Origin: a virus | UHGV virus genome: UHGV-0134932 | Strand: one strand, 5' to 3' | Length of the DNA stretch: 49,858 nt | Shown: positions 4,311 through 7,485 of the stretch, piece by piece | Position numbering within the stretch: the stretch's first letter is position 1 | Layout: each line of letters begins with the position of its first letter | The notes under the pieces: model-generated | The model's database searches: none | Seen by the model: the letters and a program-made list of their open reading frames with translations, nothing else | What the model was told of the DNA's origin: nothing | Translations under genes and position numbers: made by a program

Positions 4311-5423
4311 TTATTCAGCCGCCACCGGTTTTAACAAGCCAGCATCGAGCAGTTTACGCGTCAACCACTGCTGGCCTTTCCCCGTTAATTGAGGCGTCAA
4401 CCGTATCTGGTAGCCATCTTCATCATCCAGCACCACTTCTTTCACCGTGAAATACCCCGCGTTGATGTACTGCTGGAACGGCACATTTTTACGGCCACCG
4501 GACGCTATCAGGATGCCGTTCTCCCGCAACCAGGCAAACAGCGCGTTTTGCTTAAGTCCAACAACCTTTGCAAAATTCCCAATCAGGATCCCTTTAGCTA
4601 CTGATACCCGGTCGGCAAAATCGACTTTAGGAGCGGCGGCCACCAGCTGCTGATTTAGCTGGTGGGCTTTCTGTTCCAGAAGCTGCTTTTGTTCAGCCAG
4701 TTCGGCAGCCAGGCGTAGGGCTTCTGGTAATGTTTGGGGGATTGCAACCGGTTGCTGTTCTTTTTGCCGGAAGTAGCTGTCTTCCAGTTTTTCAAAGAAT
4801 GCCCATGCTTCATTTGTGTCCACGATCTTAGACATGCGTGCAGCGCCGCGCTCTGTCCAGAGTGTAAGGCTTCTGGCGTTCTTACCAACAGAGTAACTTC
4901 CGGTTACTCTGTTCTTAAATTCTCTTAATTTTAAACCAGTTAGAAGAAAGTAATGCTTACCTTCTTCAAAGCGGTCAAGGTTGCGAGACAAATTGTTGCG
5001 AATATTGGCTTCATCGACCCCATACCCTCTAGCAAGAGTTTCGGTTGTCACGACACGTACTCCCTGCCACTCCAGAACGGGAATTTCATCAGGCTGATTT
5101 TGAGCAACCACCAGCTCCGATTCCTGAACTGAAGGTGCATGAATTTTTTCTGATTTAACGTTAGTTGCTTTCATTCTGTGAGCCTCCTTGCGTGCTTCGG
5201 CTGCGACGGTTGCGTAATTCAGATGACCCTGTTCGAGCAGGTATTCGCGGATATCAGACAACAGAATGCGGTGAACCGCGTTCTTGTCCTTTCTCCGGTA
5301 AAGTTGTTTGGTGATCATGAAGTAGTTGGCAATAACGCCTGGTATATCTCTGGTGCTGATACAGGCAGTGTGCTGTTCAATTGCCTCAATCATTTCTTCA
5401 CGGGTGACTAATGACGTTCTCAT
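4311..5423 (-). CDS. ant: Phage antirepressor with N-terminal Bro-N/ORF6N-like and C-terminal KilAC/Ant-like regions; an in-frame internal Met would give a shorter Ant2-like product
   Basis: 370 aa; size fits P1 Ant1 (about 42 kDa) and the internal Met near residue 84 fits an Ant2-sized product; start overlaps the stop of a 73-codon icd-like ORF. Confidence 0.7.
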   Translation of the reverse strand: MRTSLVTREEMIEAIEQHTACISTRDIPGVIANYFMITKQLYRRKDKNAVHRILLSDIREYLLEQGHLNYATVAAEARKEAHRMKATNVKSEKIHAPSVQESELVVAQNQPDEIPVLEWQGVRVVTTETLARGYGVDEANIRNNLSRNLDRFEEGKHYFLLTGLKLREFKNRVTGSYSVGKNARSLTLWTERGAARMSKIVDTNEAWAFFEKLEDSYFRQKEQQPVAIPQTLPEALRLAAELAEQKQLLEQKAHQLNQQLVAAAPKVDFADRVSVAKGILIGNFAKVVGLKQNALFAWLRENGILIASGGRKNVPFQQYINAGYFTVKEVVLDDEDGYQIRLTPQLTGKGQQWLTRKLLDAGLLKPVAAE

Positions 5424-5641
5424 ACTCCCTCCTGAGCAGAAGCGTTAACAGGGAGGCACCAGTAACTGAGAGAATTGCGCGAATCAGTAGAAAAACGGGC
5501 GGAGAAAATGCAGGGTGCATCAGGAAGCTGAGAGCGAGCCTCATCTTCTGTCGGTGCAATAACGAAGTGATAGTGACGTTTCTGGCAGGAATAAAAGCGC
5601 CAGATAAATTCAGGGTGAGTTGGGGTAGGGATAGTAGCCAT
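5420..5641 (-). CDS. icd: Icd-like small protein (73 aa) translationally coupled to ant
   Basis: 73 codons; stop overlaps the ant ATG; AAGGAGG RBS; architecture of the P1 immI icd-ant pair. Confidence 0.55.
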   Translation of the reverse strand: MATIPTPTHPEFIWRFYSCQKRHYHFVIAPTEDEARSQLPDAPCIFSARFSTDSRNSLSYWCLPVNASAQEGV

Positions 5642-5825
5642 AATGGCAGCCTCCTTTTGCTAACTTAAGGAGCTACCGCGTGAGGTTCCAATCTCAATGG
5701 CGGTAGCACTGACTGGGTTGGAACTACCGGCGCAAAAGGGAACCGGCCTGCCTTTCGGCAGCCCAGCCAGCACTACCATTGATCTCGGAGCTATGTGCTA
5801 CGTATGGCTGTGCGATGGCATGACA

Positions 5826-5975
5826 CAAAAAAAGACGCTTTTGGCGTCTGTGTCGCCTTTTGCATTATCCGGGGTTCCAATCCCGGCACCCGTTTTAATG
5901 AGGTGCCTGATAAGCATAAACCGAAAATGCCTCAAGGCGCAAGAGGTCAGGCTCAATGTAACATCGGCAGTTAAA
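5826..5975 (-). ncRNA. Candidate c4-like antisense regulatory RNA and leader between the Op51-like operator and icd
   Basis: Non-coding stretch downstream of a C1 operator on the minus strand; hairpin plus U7 terminator at 5826-5848; 10-nt motif GAUUGGAACC present both in this segment and just upstream of the icd RBS, with a near-complementary AGUUCCAACC in the leader. Confidence 0.3.
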
Positions 5976-5979
5976 AAAC

Positions 5980-5996
5980 ACAATTTATTAGAGCAA
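5980..5996. promoter_or_regulatory. C1 operator (Op51-like) controlling the c4/icd/ant unit
   Basis: cAATTTATTAGAGCAAa, 15/17 match. Confidence 0.75.
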
Positions 5997-6000
5997 ATAT

Positions 6001-7485
6001 TCATTCATTAAGCCATGCCAGAGCTTCATCAACCTGCGCTTCGTCTTCGACGCTAAGCACTTCATCCTGGGGAACATAGTTCGCCAACATAGCGAAACAA
6101 TATGTATCCCAATGGTCCGGTGAGTGCAGGTTGAGTTTTTTCTTCATATCTTCCTTTGACATCACTTTCCATTGACCTGCGGAATTTATCCCTACCGGTA
6201 TCTTTGATGCTTCCTCTATAGTCGCAGCCCCCTTATCAAGCCGCATACGCCCTGATTTTACAGCTTCTGCCGCCTGAATATTCGCGAAAGCGCGCATATC
6301 GAAATAAAGGCTTTTATCTTCACGGCTGTGCATCTTTTTACCCCAGCGGATACGCTGGACGGTAATACCATAGCGTTCGTACATCAGATCAGCCGTCGAT
6401 TTCCCCAAGCCATCGCCATCAATAGCTATGGTTATGTTCGGGAACCGTTCTGGGTTACATTCTGCGAAAATCTTGGCGGCTAACTGCGTTTCTGTAACGT
6501 CTGTGTATTCCAGCATACGATAGTTGATTACACGGCGTTTATTTCGCTGGCCGGACACCATCATGATATTAATAACGGACTTATCTCGTCCTGTGCCACC
6601 AGCAACATCAACACATGCAACCCAGCCCCATCCTTTGGCAATCTTGACCTTTCGCCGCGTTGCACGTTCAACCTCATCACGTCCAAGAAGGAAGCCATCC
6701 TGTGATTTAGGGAATAGGCCGCGTACCTTAATCATGTACATAGGGTTATCACGCCCGCCGTACTCCGCCAGCTTCATTTTGATAAATGCTGGCGTTACCA
6801 GCGGTGATTCCTCACTGTTAAGCGTGATCGCCGTATAAACGCCATCAGGGTTACCAGGACGCTTGGCCAGTTTATGGTGTGTATCGTAGAAATAGCCGCT
6901 TGGGCGTGTAGGCTGTGACAGTAATAAGATGCGGTTATCCTGTCCGGTAAGAGCACCGGTGATGATACCGAAAGCTCTATCACTGACACCGGAGGCTTCA
7001 TCGATAATATACAGAAGATGATCTGCGTGTTCACCGGCGAGAGCTTCTTCACTTCCCAGACGAAAGCCCTTCGGTACTACAGTCCATACACCTTTACCAG
7101 TAACCTCATAGAAAGCGGTTTCTGTCAGAACAAAATAATCAGCAAGCCATGGGAAACGGCTGGTGGCAGTAGCCCAGTTTATCTTGATGTACTTGAATAT
7201 ACCGGTCATTACCTGCTGAATTTTGTTCGCAACGATAATGGCGCGGGCACCGGGATACATGATTATGAACAACATGATCATGATAGAAGTCATGTCTGAT
7301 TTCCCGGTACCGTGACCAGACGAAACAGATGTCTTGCTACCCTGTTCCTGAACAGACTCAATAATCAGATCCTGCTGCCAGGTAGGTGTTTTGCCGAACA
7401 AAACATCAGCGGCCGCAATCCAGTCATAACGATATAGCGCCACCAGCTCGCGCCAACGTGGATCCGTTACGCAACTTCTGGCCAT
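6001..7485 (-). CDS. pacB: PacB, large terminase/pacase subunit
   Basis: 494-aa protein directly downstream of pacA; Walker A-like GHGTGKSD and an acidic DE-containing stretch typical of terminase ATPase/nuclease domains. Confidence 0.88.

Follow-up and report, generated by a model that had tools for sequence, protein, structure and literature searches.

What does the sequence upstream of icd do with a motif that it carries twice and, a third time, in a form complementary to both copies? The question concerns positions 5640-5996 of the window, by which we mean the whole 49,858-nt stretch of viral DNA (UHGV-0134932) that was analysed. A sequence-only reading had proposed a c4-like processed antisense RNA that masks the icd ribosome binding site (RBS). 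Here the minus strand of an RCS47/D6-like phage-plasmid carries a complete immI module of the P1 type. The module is a P1-type C4 antisense immunity switch, which is textbook P1 biology, in one common specificity variant.

Organisation and genomic context of the immI locus

Read along the minus strand, the module consists of a C1 operator-like site, a leader matching the isrK family, C4 RNA, icd and ant. Its main features are as follows:

5981-5997, minus strand: operator-like site (TTTGCTCTAATAAATTG), putatively for the C1 repressor; 14 of 17 bases are those of the annotated P1 operator AATGCTCTAATAAATTT
5913-5983, minus strand: putative promoters, placed by position relative to the annotated P2c4 and P1c4 of P1; the isrK match starts at 5906
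5828-5906, minus strand: leader RNA matching Rfam isrK (RF01394; 62.4 bits, gathering score 50)
5826-5849, minus strand: intrinsic terminator from a terminator scan, stem AGACGC/GCGUCU (5849-5833) followed by U7 (5832-5826)
5696-5783, minus strand: C4 antisense RNA gene (Rfam RF01695; 76.7 bits, gathering score 45)
5420-5641, minus strand: icd, 73 aa, first translated gene of the operon (NCBIfam phage_ICD_like, E 2.6e-13; 79% identity to P1 Icd)
4311-5423, minus strand: ant, antirepressor of 370 aa with ORF6N and KilAC (ANT) domains (57% identity to P1 Ant1)

The icd start codon is located at 5641-5639, and the icd stop codon overlaps the ant start codon in an ATGA. Ant matches Pfam PF03374 (1.5e-31) and PF10543 (2.5e-18); its middle part differs from that of P1 Ant1, and the homologous gene is annotated as ant in RCS47. 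No second icd/C4 module was found in the 49,858-nt window by either tblastn or Rfam searches, so the module is single.

The module is located between pacB and c1, as in RCS47, whereas the P1 module lies between sim and kilA (PMC6906374), and P1 DNA is too diverged from it to be detected by blastn. The whole 357 nt are present with 100% identity in at least ten complete E. coli plasmids and in four PLSDB plasmids. RCS47, JL22, D6 and many other E. coli phage-plasmids have the same architecture in the same position, with 90-96% nucleotide identity over the 357 nt. Resistance genes are common cargo of this family of phage-plasmids, which is widespread in E. coli and Salmonella.

The operator-like site begins 4 nt past the pacB stop codon. 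It is the counterpart of P1 Oc4/Op51 and is conserved in related loci; this putative C1-controlled operator and the icd-ant ATGA overlap are further points of likeness to P1/P7 immI. Two putative promoters follow. The P2-like one has a -35 hexamer TTGTGT (5983-5978) and a -10 hexamer TACATT (5960-5955) with a 17 nt spacer, while the P1c4-like one has TTGCGC (5942-5937) and TATGCT (5918-5913) with an 18 nt spacer and a predicted transcription start at about 5907-5906. These hexamers are weak, and no site in the region reached the threshold of a promoter consensus scan.

C4 antisense RNA

The c4-like layout proposed earlier is borne out by Rfam: the RF01695 match (E 2.4e-13) covers the full length of the model (positions 1-87 of 87) on the minus strand from 5783 to 5696, precisely between the two copies of the repeated motif. 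Folding, suggested as a check, gave the expected closing stem and two hairpins (-46.4 kcal/mol, z -5.5), and the minimum-energy fold is the same as the centroid. Two recognition sequences, named a' and b' after the P1 scheme, are unpaired in this fold: b' is in the loop of the second hairpin and a' is single-stranded 3' of it. Across relatives the internal stems of C4 are 100% paired, and 11 of their pairs have changed on both sides. Placed in register with the 77-nt C4 annotated in P1, the mature RNA is predicted to span about 5777-5699, roughly 79 nt.

C4 is known to repress Ant synthesis in P1 (PMC8546580) and to determine the heteroimmunity of P1 and P7 (PMC12197685). In these phages it is a substrate of RNase P (Hartmann 1995, as cited in PMC11143913). 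The window module shares with P1/P7 C4-immI the RNA family and the fold, in which hairpin 2 presents b' in its loop and a' is part of the 3' junction, and also the order of elements: a1, b1, C4, a2 and b2, the last of which overlaps the icd RBS.

Two triads of complementary sites

The six sites form two triads, each with one recognition sequence in C4 and two target copies, one upstream and one downstream of it:

5873-5882, minus strand: a1, upstream GAUUGGAACC target, exposed in the second hairpin loop of the leader; its core is UUGGAAC (5880-5874)
5856-5863, minus strand: b1, target copy GCAAAAGG, single-stranded, 6 nt upstream of the terminator stem
5732-5739, minus strand: b', CCUUUUGC, the recognition site complementary to b1 and b2, in the hairpin 2 loop of C4
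5718-5724, minus strand: a', GUUCCAA, the recognition site complementary to a1 and a2, unpaired in the junction that joins C4 hairpin 2 to the closing stem
5684-5693, minus strand: a2, downstream GAUUGGAACC target with its core at 5691-5685, immediately 3' of C4
5650-5660, minus strand: b2, downstream GCAAAAGG target at 5660-5653, which shares bases with the icd Shine-Dalgarno sequence, AAGGAGG at 5656-5650

On the plus strand, the exact motif GGTTCCAATC occurs in the window only twice, at 5684-5693 and 5873-5882; the sequence-only reading had both copies, one base lower (5683-5692 and 5872-5881). It was also right about the complementary copy with a 7-nt core, which is located at 5718-5724 (within GGTTGGAAC, 5716-5724) and had been placed at about 5715-5724. 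Repeats of this length may be suspected to be functionless chance matches, and neither the bare 7-mer nor the 10-mer with one mismatch allowed (6 found, 3.6 expected) is enriched in the window. However, the two exact 10-mers are only 189 nt apart, while about 0.1 occurrence is expected per window on both strands (2 x 49,858 / 4^10), so their presence is not accidental. These exact 10-mers and a second, 8-mer triad are moreover located where the P1 a/b scheme predicts them. The probability of a chance origin is practically nil, and we reject it on the grounds of the covariation described below.

The second triad had been overlooked. It is exact as well: on the plus strand, CCTTTTGC is found at 5653-5660 and 5856-5863, and its complement GCAAAAGG at 5732-5739. 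This changes the view of RBS masking. The downstream copy of GAUUGGAACC had been thought to abut the icd RBS and to mask it, but a2 lies further upstream, with 27 nt between its end and the Shine-Dalgarno sequence. The overlap with this sequence belongs to b2, not a2, and it is the b'/b2 pair that would cover it. A candidate hairpin formed by the 3' arm of C4 and 5679-5672 would hold a2 in its loop and has a single compensatory pair.

A switch made of the single 7-nt interaction between AGUUCCAACC and GAUUGGAACC, with the downstream copy masking the RBS, would account for the a triad, which is both exact and covarying. It is nonetheless very unlikely, given the distance of a2 from the Shine-Dalgarno sequence and the overlap of b2 with it; b2 is at the RBS in the P1 annotation too. 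The b duplex is also stronger and more discriminating: b':b2 has a calculated energy of -12.4 kcal/mol with the cognate target and -6.8 kcal/mol with that of RCS47, and across the alleles the calculated energies of b duplexes are about -12 to -14 kcal/mol for cognate pairs and -3 to -10 kcal/mol for non-cognate pairs. As a predictor of specificity, duplex energy is thus informative for b and discriminates poorly between a alleles.

Covariation and specificity alleles

Comparison of about 65 distinct related loci has shown that a', a1 and a2 change together, and so do b', b1 and b2. P1-type and RCS47-type leaders were analysed separately, as a joint MAFFT alignment put the C4 columns out of register. 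In 23 distinct sequences of the RCS47/D6/pO111/Stx type, pairing is complete (100%) in all four intermolecular helices, compared to 28-50% in slid controls. Both sides have changed in 5 of 7 pairs in the a1:a' and a':a2 helices and in 4 of 8 pairs in the b1:b' and b':b2 helices. Among 13 distinct P1-type sequences, nearly all C4 variation is confined to a' and b', and the targets always match. Lack of conservation or compensation in related elements had been named as the outcome that would speak against an antisense switch; what the relatives show instead is perfect covariation between the motifs and their targets.

In total there are six a alleles and nine b alleles, each with cognate targets. 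Among 72 IMG/VR stretches of the lineage, a2, b1 and b2 are cognate in all 72 and a1 in 70. The natural recombinants L131 and L138 carry a non-cognate a1, which means that a1 pairing is not strictly required. Matched reassortants, which take three short exchanges, nevertheless greatly outnumber mismatched single-crossover products, and this argues for selection on leader pairing too.

The expectation of an own specificity holds in so far as the recognition sequences differ from those of P1 and P7 at both sites: a' is GUUCCAA in the window, CUGUCAA in P1 and CUGCUAA in P7, and b' is CCUUUUGC in the window, CACUAAC in P1 and CACAAUC in P7. Other elements have this allele too, though, and its a and b combination is the commonest of four in the RCS47/D6-like lineage. 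Both sites are different in RCS47, where a is UCUCAA and b is CUUUGAC and the targets match; D6 has the same b but another a, while the L033/L040 variant has the same a but another b. By analogy with P1 and P7, the a'/b' pair would set the immunity specificity.

In public records this region is presented differently. None of the records examined (RCS47, D6 and NZ_CP037905.1) has a C4 RNA feature; an "ash family protein" is called there by PGAP instead. In plasmids of identical sequence this CDS corresponds to a 39-aa ORF at 5779-5660, the equivalent of orf45 of the Salmonella prophage Gifsy-1, and if the region served to encode this small protein, the repeats would be incidental. Tagged orf45 is translated in Gifsy-1 and is needed for coupling to anrP (PMC4825925). 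Gifsy-1 has no icd; the frame coupled to anrP there is orf45, which extends across the C4-like region (PMC4825925). In the window the ORF ends 18 nt ahead of the icd ATG, with no coupling to icd. The ORF length is unstable (14 aa in P1, 31 aa in P7, 37-39 aa in the RCS47/D6-like lineage, no stop in others), and the peptide has no Pfam or NCBIfam match. The allele changes in a' and b' are all non-synonymous (C/D, S/L, G/E) and at the RNA level compensatory, with pairing at 100%. Protein coding is thus an extremely improbable role for this region, and we reject it because of the unstable ORF length, the non-synonymous allele changes and the lack of family matches.

Leader RNA and terminator

The isrK model is matched by the leader over its full length (positions 1-77 of 77), including the 3' terminator. 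The leader folds into hairpin 1 (5907-5885) and hairpin 2 with a1 in its loop, followed by unpaired b1 and then the terminator. The hairpin-U7 terminator, previously noticed at 5826-5848, extends over 5849-5826; it is the one minus-strand site found by the terminator scan and coincides with the 3' end of the isrK match. It had been viewed as an internal terminator of the switch. The terminator does exist, but as part of a conserved IsrK-like leader that P1 also has: a hairpin with a T-run is found at the same position in RCS47, D6, Stx2 phage F039, P1 and P7. Since this strong U7 terminator lies upstream of C4, the amount of C4 made depends on transcripts that read through it. Neither the scan nor inspection by eye revealed a sigma-70 promoter in the interval between the two, from which C4 could be made independently of read-through.

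Two Rfam families are relevant here. The c4-a1b1 motif (RF03163; Weinberg et al. 2010, PMC2864571) is found at the same distance along the transcript, ahead of C4, and shares the two hairpins, the second of which has a1 in its loop; its model stops before b1 and the terminator. The window leader matches it at 5919-5866 with 23.1 bits (E 0.0011), below the gathering score of 46.7, and scores as isrK and not as c4-a1b1; its terminator is much stronger than that of P1. The P1 leader, in turn, matches the isrK model over its full length with 35.1 bits (E 4e-6). In Rfam, isrK is outside clan CL00128. The adjacent C4 and isrK pair is also present in RCS47, D6 and F039, and in F039 it is annotated.

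Both hairpins and the intrinsic terminator of the isrK model (RF01394), known from IsrK of Gifsy-1, are present in the window leader. In Gifsy-1, and only there, short IsrK, which ends at the terminator, has been shown to bind Hfq and to trans-activate the read-through mRNA encoding the antirepressor AnrP; the region immediately 3' of isrK gives rise to a processed RNA of about 80 nt, STnc1160 (PMC4825925). STnc1160 occupies in Gifsy-1 the position that C4 has in the window and in F039. The published Gifsy-1 model differs in attributing activation to an mRNA structure switch and not to antisense titration (PMC4825925).

Proposed regulation of icd and ant by C4

We consider it highly probable that the module works as an immI-type switch, in which C4 pairs through a' and b' with a2 and b2, blocks icd and keeps ant off, so that C1 repression holds. 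Our analysis shows that the RNA belongs to the C4 family and has its fold, and that the six complementary sites are all present and covary; C4 processing and repression in the window element we infer from work on P1/P7 and Gifsy-1.

Transcription would start at the putative promoters beside the C1-repressor operator (5997-5981). The first product is expected to be an IsrK-like leader of about 80 nt with a1 in a hairpin loop and b1 in a single strand, ending at the terminator (5849-5826), while the C4 precursor would be part of the transcripts that read through. As in P1 and P7, this precursor would be cut by RNase P to give a stable RNA of about 79 nt. On the icd-ant mRNA, b' of C4 would pair with b2 on the icd Shine-Dalgarno sequence and a' with a2, blocking icd translation. 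Expression of P1 ant is subject to Rho-dependent polarity. Because ant is translationally coupled to icd through the ATGA overlap, and with Rho-dependent polarity as in P1, ant would stay off as well. With the antirepressor off, C1 repression would be maintained.

As to the leader, work on P1/P7 and Gifsy-1 suggests the role of either a decoy or an attenuator. We favour the former: within the unprocessed precursor a1 and b1 may sequester a' and b' in cis, and in trans the short terminated leader may act as an IsrK-like decoy setting the threshold of ant expression. Put more broadly, the terminated leader (5906-5826) could be a third functional RNA, an IsrK-like anti-antisense whose a1 and b1 titrate C4. 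immI would then be a decoy/antisense/mRNA circuit, and Salmonella IsrK, the c4-a1b1 motif and the P1 leader would be one element. We put this forward tentatively, as somewhat less than an even chance. Its corollary is that specificity may be a two-site a x b code, with six interleaved sites changing together.

Alternatively, the leader may be an attenuator similar to that of phage P4: C4 binding to nascent a1/b1 would promote termination at U7, limiting its own synthesis and shutting off icd-ant transcription, and this could coexist with RBS masking. The position of b1, which ends 6 nt before the terminator stem, and of a1 in an exposed loop suits such a function, as do the covariation of a1/b1 with a'/b' and the leader-terminator-C4 order conserved from P1 to Stx phages. 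The analogy with P4 CI/seqA was raised by the authors of the IsrK study (PMC4825925). Compared by description, P4 CI RNA is likewise a processed small RNA with complementary flanks (seqA and seqC) that controls downstream lytic genes, but it acts by premature transcription termination and not by RBS masking (PMC4825925). On the other hand, short IsrK of Gifsy-1 activates downstream expression in trans, and a constitutive downstream RNA did not prevent this activation (PMC4825925). Our folds, too, showed no alternative antiterminator structure for C4 binding to resolve. Attenuation is therefore possible but rather unlikely.

Implications for P1-like phage-plasmids

The control RNAs of immI are unannotated or called "ash family protein" in widespread phage-plasmids of E. 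coli and Salmonella, and the present assignment corrects this annotation. The a'/b' allele would predict heteroimmunity classes, that is, which co-resident or incoming P1-like elements can trigger each other's antirepressor. The IsrK sRNA of Salmonella and the a1/b1 leader of P1, which had long gone unexplained, appear to be a single element, and specificity appears to evolve as two independently reassorting triads. Together, these two points constitute a modest comparative addition to the biology of the P1 immunity switch.

Genetic context

Among P1-family phage-plasmids, the window belongs to the RCS47/JL22/D6 type and shares 90-96% identity with these elements across the 357-nt minus-strand stretch upstream of icd (5640-5996). 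The minus-strand order is pacA, pacB (ending at 6001), this stretch, icd and ant; c1 and coi are convergent on the plus strand. The location of ant between pacB and c1 was already noted in RCS47-like plasmids (PMC6906374), as were c4, icd and ant homologues in D6-like plasmids (PMC6799933). The Icd and Ant products are 79% and 57% identical to P1 Icd and Ant1, respectively, and the icd stop and ant start overlap in ATGA as in P1. The promoter scan reported none, and the hexamers, placeable by P1 analogy only, are weak. Three tRNA genes, usual in P1-family genomes, are located on the minus strand (31959-32031, 33475-33547, 33553-33625; 64.7-74.5 bits).

The region and its flanks include the following features (a1 and b1 are leader target copies, a' and b' the C4 recognition sequences, a2 and b2 the targets 3' of C4):

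5997-5981, minus: candidate C1 operator TTTGCTCTAATAAATTG, 14 of 17 bases as in the P1 C1 operator Oc4
5906-5828, minus: isrK match, Rfam full length, 62.4 bits (gathering score 50)
5880-5874, minus: a1, loop of the second leader hairpin
5863-5856, minus: b1
5783-5696, minus: C4 match, Rfam full length, 76.7 bits (gathering score 45)
5739-5732, minus: b', CCUUUUGC
5724-5718, minus: a', GUUCCAA
5691-5685, minus: a2, just 3' of C4
5660-5653, minus: b2
5656-5650, minus: icd Shine-Dalgarno AAGGAGG, 8 nt ahead of the ATG
5641-5420, minus: icd, 73 aa
5423-4311, minus: ant, 370 aa, ORF6N and KilAC domains

A C4 antisense RNA with two pairs of targets

The c4-like antisense RNA proposed by the sequence-only reading is borne out by the Rfam match and by RNA folding, which gives the canonical closing stem and two hairpins (-46.4 kcal/mol, z -5.5). 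The region belongs to the C4/immI family; it is unannotated but ordinary, and its specificity allele is a common one. Sites were assigned using the annotated P1 record and P1 sequence as a key. In P1, the a' 7-mer is CUGUCAA, in the junction on the 3' side of hairpin 2, and b' is CACUAAC in the hairpin 2 loop; the window has GUUCCAA and CCUUUUGC in these places.

The repeats described earlier are real, with each position shifted by one base. The window as a whole contains just two exact copies of GGTTCCAATC (5684-5693 and 5873-5882; about 0.1 copies of an exact 10-mer are expected arithmetically in 2 x 49,858 nt), which include a2 and a1, and the near-complementary copy, a 7-nt complement at 5718-5724, is a'. 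An unbiased repeat search recovered this triad (direct repeat D2, inverted repeats I1 and I7) and a second one that had been missed, namely CCTTTTGC at 5653-5660 and 5856-5863 with its complement GCAAAAGG at 5732-5739 (D3, I3, I5), corresponding to b2, b1 and b'. The GGTTCCAATC copy near icd had been taken to mask the ribosome binding site, but the end of a2 lies 27 nt short of the Shine-Dalgarno sequence. Since b2 overlaps the latter, the mask would be b':b2 instead.

A putative alternative hairpin joins GCUACCGC, which is the closing stem's 3' arm in C4, to downstream GCGGUAGC (5700-5707 with 5672-5679, minus strand), displaying a2 in the loop. This hairpin shows one compensatory pair only; an equivalent can be formed in P1 and pO111-type sequences.

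Plasmids of identical sequence carry a PGAP annotation here for a CDS of 39 aa, an "ash family protein" (5779-5660, minus strand). The reading frame begins at an AUG within the C4 5' end and spans b', a' and a2. Its length is unstable (14 aa in P1, 31 aa in P7, open-ended elsewhere), allele changes inside it are non-synonymous, and neither Pfam nor NCBIfam gives a match for the peptide. Probably, then, an RNA gene has been mis-called as coding; the CDS is possibly equivalent to "orf45" of Gifsy-1.

Covariation in related loci

Relatives were collected via Icd (80 IMG/VR and three GTDB loci) and supplemented with P1, P7, RCS47, D6 and Stx2 phage F039. In all C4-bearing loci, the a' 7-mer is flanked by two exact reverse complements of itself, one upstream and one downstream, each at a fixed distance, and b' shows the same pattern; in the pO111-type group pairing is maintained via G-U wobbles.

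Covariation of the C4 recognition helices (helix; distinct sequences; pairs changed on both sides; cells paired)
a1:a'; 23 non-P1; 5/7; 100%
b1:b'; 23 non-P1; 4/8; 100%
a':a2; 23 non-P1; 5/7; 100%
b':b2; 23 non-P1; 4/8; 100%
a helices; 13 P1-type; 2/7; 100%
b helices; 13 P1-type; 6/7; 100%

Slid-register controls of the non-P1 set gave just 28-50% pairing, and its C4 stems contain 11 further compensatory pairs. The C4 stems of the P1-type set hardly vary, which leaves virtually all variation to a' and b'. The sequence-only reading depended on its motifs being conserved or compensatory in related elements; as the targets covary with a' and b', it survives this comparison, and covariation rules out chance repeats.

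The window carries a single icd/C4 module. Several P1-like IMG/VR contigs have two or three of differing specificity (e.g., UViG_2698536372_000019 with loci L009, L078 and L084, and 648276648_000009 with L055 and L080), with one RCS47-type or pO111-type module beside pacB and at least one P1/P7-type module. In locus L058 (IMGVR_UViG_2609459791_000005) internal pacB coding sequence is joined straight to icd b2/Shine-Dalgarno, the leader and C4 being deleted. The element appears to be defective, and its icd-ant would be without antisense control.

Proposed mechanism and the leader

For this element the analysis itself establishes family membership, fold, pairing sites and covariation. In P1 and P7, C4 processing by RNase P (Hartmann 1995, cited in PMC11143913), repression (PMC8546580) and heteroimmunity (PMC12197685) have been described, and by extension all three may apply to this element. 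In the best-supported mechanism, C4 would be processed from read-through transcripts and its b' and a' would pair with b2 and a2; icd translation would be blocked and ant expression thereby prevented via translational coupling. P1 reportedly also has Rho-dependent polarity.

The internal terminator of the sequence-only reading exists one base away (minus-strand terminator-like stem 5849-5833, then seven T) and forms the 3' end of the conserved leader. The isrK-then-C4 tandem is also present in RCS47, D6 and F039, and is annotated in F039. The window leader matches isrK, whereas those of P1 and P7 match c4-a1b1. Below threshold, c4-a1b1 scores 23.1 bits (E 0.001) on the window leader (5828-5919, minus strand) and isrK 35.1 bits (E 4e-6) on the P1 leader (L003 518-612), full length including the hairpin and T-run. 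Rfam places c4-a1b1 in clan CL00128 and isrK in no clan. As the models match each other's loci, isrK, c4-a1b1 and the P1 leader appear to be one homologous element. The P1 hairpin and T-run, located between b1 and c4, are absent from the P1 record annotation.

In Gifsy-1, according to experiments, short IsrK RNA ends at the terminator, read-through yields a translationally inactive antirepressor mRNA on which the short RNA acts in trans to activate it, and the ~80-nt RNA STnc1160 is processed from just downstream (PMC4825925). Its authors liken IsrK to P4 CI/seqA; a search of that text found no mention of P1 c4 or of the Citron papers. The equivalence of IsrK to the a1b1 leader is a moderately novel lead. 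Most likely, the leader would sequester a' and b', both in cis and, in the form of a short RNA, by acting as a decoy; for this sub-function the chief competing idea is attenuation of the P4 kind.

Specificity alleles

Six a and nine b alleles occur in total. The specificity sequence of the window does differ from those of P1 and P7, as had been proposed, but it also occurs elsewhere: all 357 nt are shared at 100% identity by plasmids from 10 or more complete E. coli genomes and by four PLSDB plasmids. The RCS47/D6 lineage has either GUUCCAA or GUCUCAA at a and either CCUUUUGC or CCUUUGAC at b, in all four combinations (27, 19, 19 and 7 of 72 IMG/VR stretches, the commonest being that of the window). 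Compared with the window, both sites are different in RCS47, only a in D6 and only b in L033/L040. Crude duplex energies separate cognate (-12 to -14 kcal/mol) from non-cognate b pairs (-3 to -10) and discriminate poorly at the a site.

A2, the alignment of related non-P1 loci, has about 40 variable columns in this lineage, of which 12 sit in the six specificity elements (33-34 in a1, 48-49 in b1, 179-180 in b', 191-192 in a', 225-226 in a2, 254-255 in b2). Because the transcript order is a1, b1, b', a', a2, b2, a reassortant with matched triads needs three short exchanges, while a single crossover leaves a mismatched a1. The presence of all four combinations despite the interleaving implies recurrent exchange of short patches or else concerted change, and template switching from one inverted copy to another may be involved.

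Reassortants with matched triads are abundant, and the sole mismatches among the 72 stretches are two non-cognate a1 sites, with zero at b1, a2 or b2. In the two IMG/VR contigs concerned, which are natural recombinants (L131, 2778261639_000014; L138, 3300045988_157941), a1 belongs to one allele and a' and a2 to the other, the product expected from one leader-C4 crossover. The abundance of matched reassortants and the rarity of a1 mismatches argue that leader pairing is selected, though not essential. We regard a two-site specificity code, which would reassort while its sites remain matched, as the only other moderately novel lead.
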